From: Sphagnum compactum
Taxonomy: Eukaryota
Length of the DNA: 64,000 nt
Direction of reading: 5' to 3'
Assembly: GCA_965153455.1 (NCBI GenBank)
Contig: OZ234493.1
Span: 33,718,213-33,782,212, forward strand
Below, in pieces: positions 8,321 through 50,766 of this stretch; positions within the stretch are counted from its first letter, which is position 1, and the number at the start of each line of letters is the position of its first letter. Under the pieces are notes generated by a model. That model saw only the letters and a program-made list of their open reading frames with translations, was not told the origin of the DNA and ran no database searches. The position numbers and the translations under genes were made by a program.

Positions 8321-11300
8321 CTAATCCTTCGGACGAAGGTATGGACGAAACGCACTGGAGACTCGACCTCCAATGAACACACCACCAGGAGCTTGGTCAA
8401 CGCGTGCAGTTGCTGCCGGGTTAATTGGCAGTTCATCAGCAACTGGTGCAGCAGCAATTTTTCGAGCAGCAACAATTACTGGACGAGAGGGGAGCACTGG
8501 GTCATCGGCCTGGTCATACGATGGCAGGATTATGGGCGCTGGATTGAAAAGTACACAGTCCGGAGTCGGCTCCACATCCTGCAAGTCGACTTCCTGCTGC
8601 TCCCAGCTCATGGTTACTGGGGTTTCATGTTGGTCATCACCATCATTAGCTCCTGGGAGCTGGACATACTGATCAGTTGCAGTACCTCCCGGAGCTGATG
8701 CAACCTCTGTGTTGTTGGTGCCAGTCTCCAACATAGTGGCATCGTCCTGAATGCATTAACCAAACAATCACCTTTCTAGAACCTCTCCTGGACTTACATA
8801 GGATTCAATTGCAAACTGAACCCACAATGTAAGCCTGCCAGAAAGCCATCAGTCCTCTTGGGATCATACATTGTCTTGAAGAAATTGCTTTACATGGACC
8901 AAGGAGCATCCCTTTGAAGTTTGGAGGCTAAAAGAGAATGACATAAAGCATGAATTTACCACATGCTGTAATGTCTGCTCATTTTCTGCCGCAGCAGTGG
9001 CTCCTGCTGGAACGACGTCCTTCTTCTTGCGAGGAGTATAGGGCTTTCTGGGGCGTTTAGCGGCAGCTCCTTCAGCGGTGGCCTTCTTCTTGCGAGGAGT
9101 ATATGGCTTCTTGGGGGCCTTCTGTTTGCCCCGTCTCCTGGTCACGGGTTTCTGAGCGGAAGGTACTGGAAGTCCAGCATCTGGAACATACCAAGACAAA
9201 GACAAATCTTTCTGATACTGTCTTTTGATGGGGAATTAGGGAAAGTTTAAAGGACTGTAGCTGCTATACTTAACCGAAGAATCATAGCTGTATCAGTGGT
9301 CGACGGTGTTGGAGGTCAGTCAGGCTGCAGAGAATTGGTGGATCATATATGTGGTGGAAGGCACTTACCAATGGCAGCTTGCTGTGCAGTGGTTGGCAGA
9401 GATCGTACAACAGATGTGTCTTTGATCAATCGAGCCATGTCCTTGTTGTTTTCTTGCACAGCTTTGTCGTAGACGGCTCTGCAATCAACCATCACTTAGG
9501 GCAACAATCAGTGATCTACATGTATGCAATTTCTCTTGGATAATTCTAGGCTTATGTGTAAGTGTTTTTGATTGTTGTTCCTATCTCTCTGCAGTTTTAA
9601 ACGCAGGCTTGCAGAATTCATACAGGCTGCAACGATCACAGCACGTGATAAGAAGGTCGAGAAGAGGACCCGAAGCAGCTAGGGGTTCGATGAGAACAAA
9701 GATGATAAGAAAGGAAAAACAGAACTTGATTGATCAAGTTGTATGTAAAGAGCTGCAGGAACTCATGCATGATTTCGGTACCTGGCTGCTTCTTCCTCGG
9801 TGTTGTATGAGCCCAAGAGTTCACCCACCGGACTGCCGAAACAAACATTAAGATCAGCAACAAGAAGTAGTTCGAGTCAATGCCTATCATATTCAGTTTG
9901 TTAGGAAGTACTTGTGGTCATGAGTTTGATCTTCTCTCCATCAGAGGCAGCTAGGTCACAGAGATTCAACAGTTCTAAGTTTCTGGCATGCAACCTAGAG
10001 TTATTCCAGACACAACTATATGTTTGTTTCTTCGACTAGTCATGCGTTCAGTTGCACAAGATTGATCACCATTGCACAATGCAGATTGCAGCTGTCTACT
10101 AACAAGAGTTCACGACATTCATGACCATCCACAGCAATGTCGATGGGGGAGATAAGGTGTGTGTAGCATATGGTGAAAGATAGATTCATTGATGCATATT
10201 GCATGGCATGTGTGTACCTCCTCCTCTTCCAGTTCTCCCTGTAGGTAGCCTCGAATTTCCCACCTTTGATCTTCCTCACACAAGGGTATGTGGAGACAGC
10301 ACCAGGTCCCTTGCTGTCTCGGCGAAGGAAAAGAGCCATTTGGTCCTTGGTGAGTAGCTTCAGCTGCACAATACAAATCCCACGCAATGAATGAATGAAT
10401 TCAATCTGTGCTTTGCAGATGGATCCCTCCATACAACATCATGTCATTCATGTTGTAGCTTAGATGTCACATCCCATGATCCAACAACATGCGTATAAGC
10501 CAGTACTGAAATATCAAAGGATCGAGACTTCTAGCTAGGACCCTGCAAGCAGGATAGAGAGATATCAAGGAAGAAATCTCATGAAGAACATCAGAAACTG
10601 CCAGCTGCAAGCTTTCTGTGGTACCAAACCTGCATTGCAGCTTACCCTTCTGACATCATCTTGGTATTGTTGAGAAGGCTTGAAGTTGATCCGATCCTGG
10701 AACCCCTCGCCTCTCAGTACAAGGGCTGCTTTGTCGTAAGCCCTGGAATAAAATATTACAACACCACAGATGATCCATGAGCTGTGCTGTGCTGCAATAT
10801 AATAAGTTTGCAATGCTAGCAACTTCTTCAACATTCTTAGTGTTGTTCTGTATGGTGAAGCAGGGCAATTCACAATCCAGCAGCTGCAGCTGGTTACTAC
10901 TGCATGAAGGACTGCTGTTTGAATGTATGGAAAAGTAGCTAGCTCAAGAAGCAAAATAACACTCCAACGGTTAGGTTTCGAAGATAGATCTCGATTATCT
11001 AGATCTGTTGTACCTTGCAGCTTCTTCCTTAGTGGATGATGCACCTGCATCCAAGATCAACAAGCAAATGCAAACAGAATCAGATGGACACATAATGAGG
11101 AGCAGCAAAATGACATCGTCTACCATCAAAAGAGCAGCAGCAGCTCGTAATGCGAGCTTCCTGATCGATCTTGGCATGAAGTAAGAGCAACTTACCGAGA
11201 TAGAGTTGTCTATGCGGCTCGACATCATCAGCCCTGCACAGCATGCCACCGAAAAACATACATGTCGCATCATGACACGGCTTACAGTAGAAGATCCAGA

Positions 11301-12849
11301 CCTTGTCGCATGAAACAAATGTGAAGGGCAGAGAGGACCAGCAGGAGCTCGGAGGTACTTACCAGATGTGGGCTTCCCATCGACCAGTGCGTCGGTAATG
11401 CGTTATACCCAGAAACTCAGAGCTCTTGGAAGGTGGTCCACGACGATATGAAGCTCTTTGCTTTTTTCTCGCGGGTGGAGCTGATGCAGGGTCGTCGACA
11501 ACATCCGTCGTGATGCCAGCAGCAGCAGCTGAGGGTACTACTACTGTAGGATCATGATCAGCGACCTCTGGATTGCACGGAACAGAGTTGCAGGGATCAG
11601 TCACAGCTCCTGCAGCTTTGGACTTTCTATGCTTCCTCTTCTTCTTCTCAACAGCGGCAACAGGATGCTGGACATCTGCAACGGTCGTTGCAGCTGCTGC
11701 TGCATCGTGAGATGGAGCCGTGGTGATTGCAGCTGCTGCATCAATGACGACCTTGGACTTTCGCTTCGCGCGCGTCTTCTTCTCAGCGGGAACAGACTGC
11801 TGCAGGACTGCTGCAACAGTGGTTGAAGCTGCTGCTGGTGATTCAACCTCTGCAGCTTGCGCGTCAACGACGTCGTCGTTGGCGGGGGTATCACTTTCAC
11901 TGCCATGGTCATGCAACTGCAGCTGCTGAAAAAAGGCAGCTACACTACCGTCGTGACCACCATCGCTCCCTTCTTCCACGACACTCGACAGGGGGGGCTC
12001 ATGATGAGCGACATCTTCAATATCCTGGCGACCTCCATCCCCCGTCCCTAGCACCATCGACAGCTGGTCAGGGTACTCACGATTGTAGCTGCGGACTCGA
12101 CCGCCATCATCGTGGACAGGCATCATCGATCTCTTTTGGAAACATTCTTCGCACATGCATAAACACATCCCCTCCTGAGCACAAATCTCACACATGCATC
12201 TTCTTGGAGCGTGGACATGATCAGCGTCTTCCAGTGCTGTGGTACCCATATGGACGTCGCTACCTTCGTCGTCATCGTCACTGTTTGTCACGTCGGCTGA
12301 CTGCATCGCATCTACGTCGTCAGTAACACATTCGCTGGCGTTCACGCTTTCCGAAGATGGCTGCTGGACAGTCTCATAAGAGATCATGATGCCATCTTCG
12401 GAAGCAGCAACGCCTGCTGGCTGCCCATGATAATGAGGGACTGGAAAGGCGAAGCCGGGGTTCTTGGGACTCCAACCATATGCTGGCCATGATGCTACCT
12501 CGGACATCATGATGTCTGTCTGGAACGGAGCTGGAGCACTGGCATTCTCATGAGTTGCAGCTGCAGGATGTTCTTGCAGCTGAATTCCTCGCAGATCCAA
12601 TGTCGAGCCAGGCGAGGAGCCGAAAGCGCTTCGAAAGCGTTCAACAGTCTCAACATAGACGGGTATCTGCCCGAAGTAGAGCAAAGCCGGCACTACGTAG
12701 ACTGGGACGGTCGTCCACTCATCAGCTTGATCAGGGGCTGCAGCAGCTGCAGAGGCTGCCTGCTGCTGCACCCGACTCTGGTCCTCGACCACTCGGTCTT
12801 GCTGCATCCCACTGTCGACTTTCGGAACCATGTTGAGATCTAAGTTCAT
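8321..12849 (-). CDS. AP2-like: Divergent double-AP2-domain transcription factor (euAP2/APETALA2-like), about 868 aa, 9 coding exons
   Basis: Exons on the minus strand: 12849-11363, 11233-11196, 11044-11014, 10742-10646, 10363-10218, 9832-9782, 9478-9369, 9180-8960, 8746-8321. All introns are GT-AG with consistent phases, total 2607 nt. N-terminal MNLDLN (EAR-like). R1 reads [62 protein letters not shown]...INF. Linker is LTKDQMALFLRRDSKG. R2 reads STYPCVRKIKGGKFEATY...LLGSYNTEEEAARAVYDKAV. Intron positions match the classic euAP2 micro-exon layout. Confidence 0.88.
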
Positions 12850-13519
12850 CCTGCAAGGCAACAAAGTCCGGGTGCAGCTTCGTGATATCACCAAAACAAT
12901 TGTTCCCACACTGCACACGACTTCTATAGAATTCCAGAACTACTCCATGCGATCTCGAAGGAAAGAACAAGACACATACCTGTACGAGGATCAAGGCAAC
13001 GAAGACGATCTGAAAACAAACAGAAACTCTAGAGCTTTTCAAGAGGTTGTTGCAACGAAAAGCTGTAAGTGTAAGCCACCTCCAACAACCCTGCACACAA
13101 ACAGACAGAAGAGAGTTGATCACTGCACATGTAGTGCGATGTCTGACAAATTACAGAACTGCATCATGCAGTAGGAGGAAAGTTCTTCAAACATCGGCCT
13201 CCTGCAGTTGTTCTCCCAAAAACTTGAGACCTGTGCTAAGAGCAATATTGCAAACGATCTATATATATGTGTGTGAACCCAGTTACTTACCTCTGAGTCC
13301 ACGCAGGGGGATCGGCTACAACCCCTGCAAACGCAAGACACTCCGTGTAGATACTACAGTAATCGGAAAATGATGCAGCAGCAAGAGGAGGGAAAGCTTT
13401 ACTACTCCGTTTGAAAAACTATCTTTGAAACCAAAAAAACAGTAGTAGTACTCATATCACCATGAAGAGCTTGAACTGCACCTCAGAGTCTCAAAGAAAA
13501 TGCGGCCAAGAAACGACAG

Positions 13520-33666: not shown

Positions 33667-36600
33667 CTACTTTGCATTTCTTGCCTTCTGATCCTCAAGG
33701 ATCTGTAACTTTCGCTGGGCTTCCAAGAATGCATCTTCCTTGCCTTGCTCCTTCAGTTCACTAACAATGTGTCTTGCGCATGCAATTGCCTCCTCATACC
33801 TGTTTCAAACCATTTCATCATCACCAATATAGATCATCAACACAGCTTTTGATTTCTGAGTAACATGACCCAAAGTAGCACACCAAAGGAGAGATGGAAT
33901 GGGCATACCTCCCCAGTTTGGAATACACACTAACAAGGCTTTCATAGCTGCCGAGGGTGTCAGAGTGACTTGGGCCATATGCCTTACTCAGTATTTCCTT
34001 TGCTTCCTCAAGGATTTTCAATGCCTCCACTGGATGACCAAGCTCCAAATGAGCTACACCTAGATGGTTGAGCACCAACCCAAGAGAGAAGTGATTGTCT
34101 CCAAAGCTCTGCCTCAGTTTTTCGACAGCATCTTCCAAGTGAGGGAGGGCTGCTTCTAGTTGGCCATTGTTGATTAGAAGCAGACCAACTTGAGCTTGAG
34201 TACCTGCAGCTGCATTTTTCTGCTCAGGAATTTCTGCAAAGACAGTGAGTGCCCGCTTCAGGAGACCTATGGCTTCCTCAGGCTGGTTCATTTGTTCATA
34301 TATTGCAGAAAGTTCTGTGAAAGCTTCTGCAACAGCAAGTGCATGAGGGTCTTTTGCTGCCAACCCCTTGCTTCTGTTGTTCACAATGTCCATGGCCATG
34401 CTGCAATTGCAAGAATCACAACTTTAAGTCTGCAAATCTTCAATTGAAAGTGCAATTGTATGAAATTTTTGTTGTACTTGAACCATCTCAAATGATGTGA
34501 AATACTTTCTCACCTGCAGTAAGATCTTGCTTGCTCCATTTTACCTAGTCCTGCGTAAGCCTTTGCAAGGTTGACTGTAGCCAGTGACCGCATTGGACTG
34601 TCTTCAGCCATCTGAGACAAAGCACTCTGGAGGGATGCAATTGCATCATCGAATTTGCCAAGTGTGATCTGGGTATCTGCTGTTGAGATCTCCACAAAAA
34701 CAGTCTCAGATCCAATATTCCTCTCTTTGAGAATCTTCCTCACCAACAACTGTTCCTCAAGGGCTTTCTCATGATCTTCTAGTCCACTGTAAATGACAGA
34801 GAGAAGACGCCTATCAATAGCTTCCTCTATTGAACCTTCACCATGGATCTTGAGGTGACTCTCCAGAGCCTTTTTCGCCAAAGTCTTTGCATCATCAAAA
34901 CGCATTACCTGGGTGAACGCTTCACCCACCTGTGAATGCAAACAAGTGAAGATCCTTAGATGAAATGAATTTGATTCAGCAGAGGAGCTACCAATGATAA
35001 ACAGATTTGGGAGACTCTATTATTCCACAAATTTTTCAGACTGCACAATGTAAGGTGTACACTGAGGAATCTTGTATCTTACAATGTACATCCTGTTCTG
35101 ACCCATTCAGATACTTCTTGTCCAAGATTTGTACAATGTATTGATTATCAGGTTCTTACCTGCCGATAGCTGGAGGCCAAGTGAGAATGACCAGGCTCCA
35201 AGAAAGTCTCTTGCACAGAAAGTCCTTTGGAATAGTGATGCAGCGACTCATCATGCTTTCCCAGAGCAGCAAAGGTGTCACCCAGCAAGAAGTGAACTGC
35301 AAACATTACAGGACCATACTCTGGACCCTCATGTTTCTGAATGATACGGAGTGCATGCTTCAGGTTGACCAAACTAACATCATGATGACCCAGTTTATTG
35401 TGCGCTGAAGCAATTAGGTGGTAGCACATTGCTGTCTCCAGAGGATCACTTATAGAACTCGTTTTTAAAACCTGCAGGGCCTGCTGTCCATATCTAAGAA
35501 CTTTATCCGGGCTTTCGCCAATAGAGTCATACTCTTGACCAAGTCTTAAAGCAACACTGGCTATTCGAGGGTCTTGTGGGTGAGCATCAGCTTGCAAGCG
35601 CCGCAACATCTCTTCAAGCTTCATGACACTCATTGACTCCCCTGCATTGTTCAAACATGTTTATACATGTTGCAAGTATGACGATTGGGCCTCATTCAAC
35701 ACATAATATCTCTGCCTCATAGGAGACAAACAAGCAATGAAGTGGGTCCATTGAAGTTAAGTTCATCAGATGCCACTTTCGAGCAAGGATTCACATTTGG
35801 CGGGTTGCACTAAAGCATGCCAGACACATGTGACCTTTAGCTTGTGGCAATCAGAATGCAAATGATCAGAAGAGAGATTTCACAAGGCTTTCAGAATGTG
35901 ATCACCTTTAGTTTGCTGGGCTTCTTGAATCCGCTTGTTGAGTTCTTCCCACAGTGCTCCATCAAGAGCTTTCTCTTTTTCCGTCTCTTCATCATCTGCT
36001 ATAAATTCATCTGCACAAGTCACTCATTCAAATCCATATTCCAAAACGTCCCAATCCATTCTGACACTGACATGTCCAGAAATGAGGCTCATTCTGGCAA
36101 GGATTTTGATGACAGCAAATCAACTGTTTCCAGAGCTAAAATCAGAAAGAATATCACACAAACCACTGAAAGCACATAGTAGCCTTCTTACCTTGAGCTT
36201 CAATCGCCACACTGTCATGATCAAGTGACTGATCCTTTTGTGAAGTTTGGGTCACATCTACAGTTGGTTCCTTTCCTCCACCACTTTCCAAGTGTTGTAG
36301 AGGTTGTTCCAGCGAGGATGTTCTGCTGGGTGCAGCTTCAGGCTCACCAAGTATCTGGGCACTGTAATGTCTCTGCCACAATTCATTTCCAATTCTCAAT
36401 GAACCCCAAGTGCAGCAGCTGCTTGTATGGTGTGTGAGCCCCCAGTTTCTAGTTCCACATGGATCAACATGTCCATTGCAAACATAGGCAGTAACTTTTT
36501 TTCTGACACCAACAGCCATTCTCGTACTCAAAGTGATTTTTCGCTGACTTTCATCCCTGGTGGAAAACATCACAGACCATGATGATGCCATTTGATTTCC

Positions 36601-49450: not shown

Positions 49451-49755
49451 AAGAAAAGAAACCCTGGCCCACAGGGGGTGTGAAAATGGTGGCAGGAAGG
49501 AGGTCGGAGTGGGTCAGATCCGGAGCGTCGAACAAGAAGTGGATGAAGCGCTGTAATATGGACGGCTGAAGATGCGTTCGGATAATGAGGAGATCTCCGG
49601 GTACCAATGAGCGTCGCGTGGTTTGGTCCTCTTGCACCCGCGTGTGTGCCCGCTTCTCTATACTTTGTCTGCGCAGCGTCGAGTGTTCTTCCTGTTCGCT
49701 TGCTTGCTTGCTTGTGGCATTTGTGTCTGTTTGCGGTTGCGTTTGCGTTGTGATC

Positions 49756-50766
49756 ATGGCGAGCTCCGTTGCTGCAGGATGCAAGGTGACTGTCAGCTGC
49801 TTGGTACAACCGTCGCTGGAGAAGAGCCGCAGTGGTGCGGACTTGAGACCTGCGTCTGTGAACTCTGTTTTCGGTGTCCGGAATCATGGCGCTAGTAAAG
49901 TGTCGTGCTCGCTTGCTGACGACGTGCGCTCCTTGGTTACCAAAGCGTCTGTTGCTGGAAAAGCTGCGGCTGTTGCACTCGCGACAGCTGCGCTCGTTGC
50001 TTCCGCTGCACAAGCGGAAGGGACGCCTAAGAGATTGACGTTCGAGGAGATCAATTCGTTAACGTACAATGAAGTCAAGGGGTCGGGAACTGCTAACCAG
50101 TGTCCCGCACTGGCTAGTCCTGCTGTAGACGGATTCAAGTTCGCGGCGGGTAACTACCAGATCAAGAAGCTGTGCTTGGAGCCAACGAAGTTCCAAGTCA
50201 AGGCGGAGTCGGCATTCAAGTCCGGGGAAAAGGAGTTCCAGGACACGAAGCTCATGACACGCCTGACATACACTCTTGATGAGATTGAAGGACCGTTCAC
50301 CGTCGGATCTGATGGTTCTGTGAAGTTCAAGGAGGTTGACGGGATCGACTACGCCGCAACCACCGTGCAGCTTCCAGGAGGAGAGAGAGTTCCGTTTCTG
50401 TTCACCATCAAGGAGCTTGAGGCGACAGGCAAACCCGAAGCGTTCGGTGGGAAGTATCTGGTTCCTTCGTACAGAGGATCATCCTTCCTGGACCCCAAGG
50501 GCAGAGGTGGCTCCACTGGATATGACAACGCCGTGGCTTTGCCTGCAGGAGGTGCGGGAGACGAAGAGGAACTACTGAAGGAGAACCAGAAGAACACAGC
50601 AGCGTTAGAAGGCAACATAACCTTCAAGATAGTGCAGAGCAACCCTGAGACAGGCGAGATTGGAGGAGTGTTCAAAAGTTTGCAGCCTTCCGACACGGAC
50701 TTGGGGTCCAAAGCTCCTAAGGAAGTCTTGATTGAGGGCATTTTTTATGGCCAGCTTGATAAATAG
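49756..50766 (+). CDS. PSBO: Photosystem II oxygen-evolving enhancer protein 1 (33 kDa, PsbO), chloroplast precursor, 336 aa, single coding exon
   Basis: ATG at 49756 in ATCATGGCG context. Bipartite transit peptide ending in [11 protein letters not shown]. Conserved motifs include [80 protein letters not shown] and QPSDTDLG. Confidence 0.98.

Follow-up and report, generated by a model that had tools for sequence, protein, structure and literature searches.

A probable moss branch of the euAP2 lineage: tandem Sphagnum genes with a conserved first and a rewritten second AP2 repeat

We analysed a 64,000-nt stretch of the Sphagnum compactum genome (assembly GCA_965153455.1, contig OZ234493.1, forward-strand positions 33,718,213 to 33,782,212; hereafter the window, whose coordinates are used unless a chromosome is named) and characterized a double-AP2 gene on its minus strand, running from 12849 to 8321. 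This gene, termed copy E, is one of five tandem copies, and we consider it fairly probable that they form a moss branch of the euAP2 (APETALA2) lineage, in which a repressor carrying an ethylene-responsive element binding factor-associated amphiphilic repression (EAR) motif relies on its first AP2 repeat (R1) together with a refolded second repeat (R2). With two repeats and a linker, and with neither the 10-aa insertion nor the intron pattern of ANT, the product is a double-AP2 protein that is not ANT-type. Judged from its sequence and those of its relatives, the gene is old and conserved, not young and fast, and it is R2, not R1, that is rewritten.

The gene is real: nine coding exons join into an 868-aa frame without internal stop, and all eight introns are GT-AG, in agreement with a first-pass annotation, made from the letters alone, that had described an open frame over nine exons with canonical splice sites. 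The span it gave, 9369..11450, lies inside the gene and covers only the end of exon 1 to exon 7. Exon 1 (1487 nt, 11363..12849; all exons lie on the minus strand) carries the EAR motif, a long low-complexity region, a Cys-rich patch, basic runs resembling a nuclear localization signal (NLS) and the first half of R1, which continues through exons 2 (38 nt, 11196..11233) and 3 (31 nt, 11014..11044) and ends in exon 4 (97 nt, 10646..10742), where the linker starts. Exon 5 (146 nt, 10218..10363) holds linker and the first strands of the rewritten R2, exon 6 (51 nt, 9782..9832) its third strand and the start of its helix, and exon 7 (110 nt, 9369..9478) the helix end and a predicted extra helix that replaces the TNF segment; exon 8 (221 nt, 8960..9180) encodes a basic tail, and exon 9 (426 nt, 8321..8746) closes with the stop codon. 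Furthermore, a 30-nt micro-exon is predicted in the 5′ untranslated region (12980..13009, minus strand), with an in-frame stop upstream of the ATG, from site conservation (its AG and GT-ATGT sites are kept in 5/5 paralogs) and with no reads behind the prediction; the accompanying predicted intron (12979-12851, minus strand) would raise the gene to at least 10 exons.

The internal exons follow the euAP2 pattern, as the first-pass annotation had proposed. Exons 2 to 7 measure 38/31/97/146/51/110 nt against 26/31/88/146/45/104 in a vascular euAP2 locus from a metagenome (L174), so that exons 3 and 5 are of equal length and exons 2, 4 and 6 are longer by four, three and two codons; because every difference is divisible by three and intron phases agree at 7/7 positions, the match is not due to chance. 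A further euAP2 locus (L172) agrees with the 3′ half of the pattern. Paralogs A, B and D have the same six internal exon sizes as copy E, and paralog C has lost intron 1 and has exons 5 and 7 of 143 and 107 nt. The genome's own euANT gene (L109), by comparison, has internal exons of 82, 9, 89, 74 and 128 nt, including the 9-nt VYL micro-exon of ANT, and shares only one intron (after YL-G) with the focal gene.

The two repeats differ sharply in how far they retain euAP2 residues. R1 (aa 469-539, exons 1-4, 10682..11445, minus strand) scores 76 bits against a hidden Markov model (HMM) profile of vascular euAP2 R1, the range for R1 being 76-81 bits, beside 66 for a basalANT-type gene (L081) and 31 for a diverged intronless gene (L083) of the same genome. 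R2 with its new helix (aa 575-645, exons 5-7, 9394..10294, minus strand) reaches 14.7 bits against the euAP2 R2 profile, on which an algal R2 scores 106. These profiles are home-made, from 77 members picked by a position-fixing pattern, and conservation counts hold partly by construction. The spliced focal protein was scored with these profiles and the Pfam AP2 scan covered relatives, single exons and the public model of the focal gene (P0001): R1 of spliced relatives passes (43.9 bits for the paralog D protein, 41.2 and 38.7), and no match was returned in six single exons or in P0001, in which micro-exons are skipped.

Residues were mapped by alignment onto the DNA contacts of AtWRI1 reported in PMC9401623 (all papers are cited here from the parts of their text that were available). 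With the ANT insertion set aside, R1 keeps the euAP2 residue at 12 of 13 contact positions, among them all four that read bases, so that its DNA-reading face is largely intact; the exception is R67, the YRG arginine with a backbone and helix-packing contact, which is Leu. R1 has no 10-aa ANT insertion, with four extra residues inside the euAP2 micro-exon in Sphagnum and none in the Physcomitrium model. In R2, only 2/11 contact positions hold the euAP2 residue (3/11 if the Tyr of RAVYD is counted), R183 has become Thr and Y192, according to the register chosen, Gly or Glu, and the D105-R163 inter-repeat bridge is changed at both of its ends in Sphagnum and Physcomitrium alike. Exon 5 has the 146 nt of euAP2, and R2 is too diverged for a safe register on the 1-aa ANT insertion. 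The individual changes listed in the first-pass annotation (FLGI, the four-residue insertion in the 38-nt micro-exon, ASST, YPCV, GKFEAT, RAVYD and the missing TNF) are all present, although the I of FLGI is private to copy E (paralogs A, B and D, like the S. jensenii ortholog, have V) and the residue insertion read at RAVYD may instead be a Y-to-V substitution common to Physcomitrium. Its suggestion of altered DNA reading by R2 fits the contact counts; its claim that both repeats are rewritten, with altered sheet Arg and Trp residues, applies to R2 and fails for R1, where the sheet Arg/Trp set is intact and only the YRG arginine is lost in copy E.

R2 falls under the Pfam AP2 threshold by sequence, and the AP2 fold is kept in the structural model. 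An AlphaFold model of a paralog-B relative (four moss sequences as input; mean predicted local distance difference test score, pLDDT, of 51, weak overall because the termini are disordered) gives R2 as three strands and a helix, with a block pLDDT of 64-88, followed by an extra helix in the place of TNF. The model superposes on residues 62-226 of AtWRI1 (PDB 7WQ5), spanning both repeats, with Z 12.8 and a root-mean-square deviation of 3.4 over 149 residues. A search of the ESM Atlas returned generic AP2 clusters alone.

The rewriting of R2 is not confined to Sphagnum. The best non-Sphagnum match of the domain region, with a score tied with Citrus AP2 proteins, is an uncharacterised Physcomitrium patens protein (PHYPA_027292 / XP_073386220.1) that has in common with the Sphagnum copies YLGAS in R1, the QM-x-x-aromatic-LRR linker, YP-x-V, EA-x-YR, RAV and the new R2 tail, with 23 shared derived residues overall (R1 9, linker 6, R2 8). 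It is also the top non-Sphagnum protein for a profile built from Sphagnum R2 only (23.6 vs 17.2 bits), and the breakpoints of an alternative model and those of a related exon fit introns 1 and 4. The protein differs from the focal gene in having no R1 insertion, in keeping YRGV in R1, in a C-terminal EAR motif and in unrelated termini; no second Physcomitrium copy was seen among the search matches. We regard PHYPA_027292 as a probable ortholog of the Sphagnum copies, on the strength of the shared residues. The Sphagnum/Physcomitrium split is one of the deepest in mosses, and because the rewritten R2 is common to both, its rewriting would be older than that split.

Phylogenetic analysis (40 proteins, 174 columns, LG+C20; bootstrap not fully settled) united Sphagnum and Physcomitrium with support of 100/98, and a 96/95 branch separated the moss proteins, vascular euAP2, a Chlorokybus protein (P0306) and an algal protein (P0100) from ANT, the double-AP2 proteins of algae and two diverged intronless genes of the same Sphagnum genome. 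Tree and profiles exclude P0162, a mis-spliced model of the Physcomitrium gene, and the protein tree also excludes paralog C, in which half of R1 is gone; TOE2, SMZ and SNZ are not named among the rows of the tree. In approximately unbiased (AU) tests, grouping the mosses with vascular euAP2 was retained (p 0.35) and moving Physcomitrium away from Sphagnum was rejected (p 0.004). The tree thus lends good support to the moss clade and weak support to its exact sister group. The Chlorokybus protein combines a near-canonical euAP2 R1 (144 bits) and linker with no second repeat, and may bear on whether the loss of R2, or a single-repeat state, is ancient.

Within Sphagnum, a search of the genome DNA placed copy E with paralogs A, B, C and D (C1:33.616-33.694 Mb) within 115 kb. 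All four paralogs have open frames (456-781 residues), and A and D sit in a 17-kb inverted duplication of 89-96% identity (G000:C1:33607157-33624612 and 33685768-33703280). In paralog C (G000:C1:33663907-33667509), an in-frame deletion has taken out the R1 sheet together with the NLS-like runs and intron 1, and the EAR motif is missing; its frame is open here as well as in three further Sphagnum species, in which the same type of deletion recurs. Five other species (S. fallax, S. jensenii, S. troendelagicum, S. tenellum and S. balticum) have annotated relatives of these copies, in several of them under adjoining accession numbers.

The ratio of nonsynonymous to synonymous substitution rates (dN/dS) was estimated from pairwise Nei-Gojobori counts with our own code and Fisher P-values, the pairs not being independent. 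Over R1, linker and R2, copy E gave 0.24 and 0.22 against paralogs A and D (p 2e-4 and 2e-5), and 0.34 and 0.51 against B and C; R1 was lowest (0.15, 0.20), R2 alone gave 0.29 against A (p 0.06) and 0.19 against D (p 0.01), and the termini 0.57-0.68 against A and D. The values of 0.22-0.24 resemble the 0.21-0.29 given for seed-plant AP2 genes in PMC5029118. That dS is lower in the 3′ half may point to gene conversion among the copies. Consistently, differences from the S. jensenii ortholog number 4/177 in R1-R2, 31/468 before and 15/223 behind. These results contradict the first-pass description of a fast-evolving, lineage-specific paralog, for which dN/dS against paralogs had been named as a check. 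A young, fast Sphagnum-specific gene of new specificity or dominant-negative action would account for the tandem expansion, for the four-residue insertion and YRG arginine loss, both seen in Sphagnum only, and for the faster termini, but its R2 changes are common to Physcomitrium, both repeats are under purifying selection and no canonical euAP2 was found in the genome; we consider this explanation largely refuted.

Outside the repeats, a DLNxxP EAR repression motif at residues 4-9 (12823..12840, minus strand) bears out the N-terminal EAR-like motif of the first-pass annotation. It is present in copies E, A, B and D and in 7/8 public relatives checked, and absent in paralog C and its relative P0018; DLNxxP is the motif with which euAP2 proteins start (PMC8136505). 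A second EAR motif known from seed plants, LxLxL behind R2, was found in none of the five models, and according to the same text it is also missing from lycophytes. Exon 8 encodes a basic, NLS-like stretch with two T-P-R-K-K-K repeats (9020..9139, minus strand); two such repeats occur in E, A and D, one complete and one shorter in C, and one in B. By analogy with SPKK/TPKK motifs, we presume that this stretch possibly binds the minor groove. A Cys-rich patch in exon 1 (12200-12125) is present in E and C and deleted in A, B and D, and the Physcomitrium protein carries a different Cys-rich patch ahead of R1.

The focal cluster is the only euAP2-type locus that we found in this Sphagnum genome, whose assembly may be incomplete. 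A whole Citrus AP2 query (87/130 candidates scored) returned no canonical euAP2 and instead ANT-type, RAV, ERF and intronless genes. An euAP2 exon-1 query (6/6 candidates scored) had the focal cluster as the best four of its six matches (56-70%), and an exon-5 query (8/8 scored) matched four intron-bounded exons (56-64%) and two intronless genes, again without a canonical euAP2; among the former, L109 was read as euANT and the other three were taken as ANT-type from their similar match. The suggested dominant-negative action would accordingly have no normal euAP2 found in this genome to antagonise. An intronless basalANT-type gene with an altered second repeat (L081, C4:13.88 Mb) lies in the ANT clade and is probably a SMOS1-like member, a label given by likeness; a SMOS1-like identity of the focal gene was rejected, as L081 fills that place. 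Two further intronless, diverged double-AP2 genes (L082, C9:9.90 Mb; L083, C17:2.48 Mb) form a long-branched pair (100/100) outside euAP2 and ANT.

Published surveys, as far as their available text goes, report the lineage as absent from mosses: PMC8136505 gives no euAP2 homologue outside vascular plants after searching Physcomitrella and other bryophytes, and PMC5029118 none in alga, moss or fern. PMC6676641 places moss AP2 proteins, not named, in a separate clade. Marchantia genes have been called MpAP2L (PMC6174852). Our literature searches yielded no description of the moss clade, and six gene and protein identifiers yielded no paper; figures or supplements of the phylogenetic papers may name the clade. 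A missed detection would be explained by the Physcomitrium protein lying under the Pfam AP2 cut-off (21.5 vs 33.3 bits). We hold orthology of the moss genes with euAP2 to be reasonably probable, and incline, by a narrower measure of confidence, to the fuller proposal that the Sphagnum genes and PHYPA_027292 are bryophyte APETALA2 orthologs missed by the published searches, in which R2 early on became a conserved module that had gained a helix and taken up a different function.

Several observations weigh against this assignment, the first of them phylogenetic. The tree does not firmly place the mosses as sister of vascular euAP2 (84/33), the moss branches are long, and AU tests rejected a grouping with ANT only at the borderline (p 0.05) and did not reject one with the intronless pair (p 0.20). 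These latter values are compatible with an origin from the ANT lineage or from intronless divergent double-AP2 genes, with the four extra residues as a shortened ANT insertion, and L082 and L083 do have a superficially similar loop after the R1 Trp. We nonetheless give that origin hardly any credence, since the intron set is that of euAP2 and not ANT, the Physcomitrium model lacks the insertion, and R1 scores at 76-81 bits on the euAP2 profile against 66 for L081 and 31 for L083. A less remote alternative, though still unlikely, is an ancient euAP2 out-paralog. The duplication would date from before land plants arose or from about that time; mosses would have retained the extra copy, which vascular plants lost, and the true euAP2 would have disappeared from mosses or would survive in other bryophytes. 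In its favour, the tree does not order moss, P0306, P0100 and vascular euAP2 (88/41, 84/33), Chlorokybus has a euAP2-like R1 without a second repeat, and there are the MpAP2L genes of Marchantia. Such a history requires two reciprocal losses, however, and all comparable introns are common to vascular euAP2 whereas many of the alga-type double-AP2 loci examined are intronless across the domain.

The known spread of the clade is likewise narrow, comprising, among the matches listed, Sphagnum and the Physcomitrium protein with one close relative only. No liverwort, hornwort or other moss member was recognised in the best 150 of 7650 profile matches (down to 115.6 bits, 10 of them named), below which weaker orthologs may sit; a word search that started from the Physcomitrium domain picked out 3 proteins from 451 candidates (464-1477 aa), and in the 80 metagenome loci kept out of 444 none was recognised as belonging to the moss clade. 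The motifs are also mixed. The Physcomitrium EAR motif lies at the C-terminus and not at the start, and no miR172 site, which in euAP2 genes lies in the 3′ coding region, was found, the best match to query sites from four euAP2 loci having 7-9 mismatches in 21 positions in the gene region and the five coding sequences. In the texts available, lycophyte euAP2 genes also lack the site (PMC8136505) and no miR172 was found in moss (PMC6676641). Hence the intron pattern, R1 and first EAR motif of euAP2 are present, and the miR172 site, an intact R2 and the second EAR motif are not; because the miR172 site is lacking, we do not file the gene as euAP2 in the strict sense, and on these features it is probably a variant within the euAP2 lineage.

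Further points concern DNA binding by R1. In AtWRI1, R183A or Y192E alone abolishes DNA binding (PMC9401623), and by analogy R1 by itself may not bind DNA; R1 has also eroded further outside copy E, its position R73 being Q in A and D, P in B and T in Physcomitrium, and paralog C has no R1 sheet at all. As the main rival mechanism, we weighed whether the protein could be a non-DNA-binding adaptor or corepressor that makes protein contacts through both repeats and brings in the corepressor through the EAR motif. SMOS1-type proteins with an imperfect second repeat are a precedent for such an adaptor. The change of both residues essential for binding in WRI1, the loss of the YRG arginine in Sphagnum and the open frame of paralog C here and in three other species all fit an adaptor. 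Yet all four base-reading positions of R1 hold euAP2 residues in copy E and R1 has the lowest dN/dS (0.15, 0.20), Arg at WRI1 position 74, the residue found there in euAP2-type R1, increases the affinity of WRI1 tenfold (PMC9401623), and paralog C also lacks the EAR motif and is under weaker constraint (0.51 against E over R1-R2). An adaptor role appears improbable to us.

The last group concerns expression. No spliced read or contig of the focal gene was found in four RNA runs (88% likeness), with no joint at any predicted intron, so that the RNA check proposed for the junctions in the first-pass annotation returned none; a polyA run (X10) gave 4 matched reads among 11.9 million (about 12% of the run). 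Contigs of runs X1-X3 (X2 and X3 gave identical tables) cross exon-intron borders and for that reason represent DNA or unspliced RNA of relatives. Junction support comes instead from conservation and from public models of relatives that use the same junctions (P0009, P0026 and others). The public model of the focal gene itself (P0001 / CAM6034338.1) is partial, with 700 aa and exons 2, 3, 6 and 9 skipped, and that of its S. jensenii ortholog (P0064) retains intron sequence. A silent or decaying copy E, its function carried by A and D, would explain both the missing spliced transcripts and these irregular models. We judge it very unlikely, given the open frame and intact splice sites, the few differences from S. 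jensenii in R1-R2 (4/177, against 31/468 and 15/223 outside) and an exon 1 that is open in many peat-metagenome relatives (91-94% identity). Expression may be limited to certain tissues, such as gametangia or sporophyte.

Under the moss euAP2 reading, R2 would have lost, before the Sphagnum/Physcomitrium split, its base-reading residues and the salt bridge that packs it on R1, while keeping its fold, gaining a helix in place of the TNF segment and staying under purifying selection since. The product would most likely be a repressor in the nucleus, brought to chromatin by its intact R1 sheet with the aid of the basic T-P-R-K tail or a partner; that the tail adds affinity is our assumption from SPKK-type motifs. 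DLNxxP would recruit a TOPLESS-type corepressor, R2 would act as a packing or protein-contact module, and miR172 control would be absent. Arabidopsis AP2 binds its AT-rich site in vitro through R2, and this would speak against the moss protein being able to share AP2's targets.

If the clade is moss euAP2, the published gap is a detection artefact and the lineage was never absent from mosses; part of the argument on sporangium evolution in PMC8136505, in the text available, rests on that absence. What a central regulator of flowers and seeds did ancestrally, for example in sporangium development, would then be testable in a model moss, and moss R2 would show an AP2 repeat that nature has retained for a task different from canonical base reading. 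In Sphagnum, the array itself offers a graded series, with one copy lacking the R1 sheet and EAR motif.

Part of copy E has also spread to chromosome ends, so that a piece of a regulatory gene is now a building block of them. The segment 9556..10107 (minus strand; end of intron 5, exon 6 and start of intron 6), source of a captured 550-bp fragment, has at least 30 matches of 76-81% identity on 13 contigs, and at least 25 of these matches lie no more than 170 kb from a contig end (lower bounds, with 40 of 100 candidates scored). The fragment makes up the opening 580 bp of a subtelomeric repeat block of 1.45 kb, which on C16 starts 10 bp from the telomere tract. Twenty-four aligned copies and one from C20 group with copy E against the four paralogs (Shimodaira-Hasegawa-like approximate likelihood-ratio test, 100) and share intron sequence found in E only. 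With 27 AT-to-GC changes against 9 in reverse and 31-37 CpG against 14, their gain in G+C suggests biased gene conversion. An origin of exon 6 from the subtelomeric repeat was rejected, as the exon is homologous to euAP2 exon 6, occurs in all paralogs, and the repeats branch with copy E alone; a coding role of the fragments was also rejected, the donor GT being lost in 7/8 subtelomeric copies displayed and flanking exons being absent. Other pieces include exon 5 at C1:14.19 Mb (89%) and exons 6-8 in four places on C20. On that small chromosome, at 2.30/2.58/2.84 Mb (L053-L055), the four broken exon 6-8 copies stand beside retrotransposon-like frames and other pieces of the subtelomeric block, and at one subtelomeric locus an EXS-family (PHO1-like) fragment (L059:3333-3878, E 1.9e-8) lies about 0.9 kb from the AP2 fragment. 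Subtelomeric arrays also stand head-to-head inside chromosomes (C1:17.30-17.43 Mb and C9:1.32-1.61 Mb; L071-L075). The C9 loci contain tracts of the telomere heptamer, and C1 is about twice the usual size; these internal arrays look like end-to-end fusion sites or misjoins. Elsewhere in the window lie a TPR-repeat gene (33824-35660, minus strand) and a gene for the photosystem II manganese-stabilising protein, PsbO (49570-50763, plus strand).

Among known systems, vascular euAP2 proteins (AP2, TOE1, TOE3 and those of Selaginella, Huperzia, Equisetum, Ceratopteris and Ginkgo) are alike in intron positions and phases, the RRGP-type lead-in to R1, the R1 base-reading residues, the lack of a 10-aa ANT insertion, the N-terminal DLNxxP and a dN/dS near 0.2. 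The moss genes differ from them in their rewritten R2, with a helix for TNF and changed D105-R163 positions, in the four extra R1 residues (Sphagnum), in lacking the miR172 site and second LxLxL, and in a much longer N-terminus and a five-copy tandem array; a conserved, DNA-reading R2, present in all vascular euAP2/TOE3 proteins treated in the available text of PMC8136505, is missing from them. BasalANT proteins (the SMOS1 and At2g41710 clade, with PpSMOS1-like1 and 2) are also double-AP2 proteins with a degenerate repeat that occur in mosses (PMC6361745) but carry the ANT-type 10-aa insertion, and the genome's own basalANT-type gene is the separate, intronless L081. The closest solved structure, the AtWRI1-DNA complex (PDB 7WQ5), aligns over both repeats and the linker, whereas AtWRI1 belongs to the ANT lineage and needs R2 residues R183 and Y192, both changed in moss. 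Arabidopsis TOE2, SMZ and SNZ, also of the euAP2 lineage, combine one typical repeat with an incomplete or divergent R2 and still repress (PMC5029118); they are Brassicaceae-only and miR172-regulated, and TOE2 has lost exon 6, whereas the moss genes keep all exons and a different, conserved R2. From the species involved, we infer that the two R2 changes arose separately, and the moss protein may work most like SMZ, SNZ and TOE2, as a functional analogue only.

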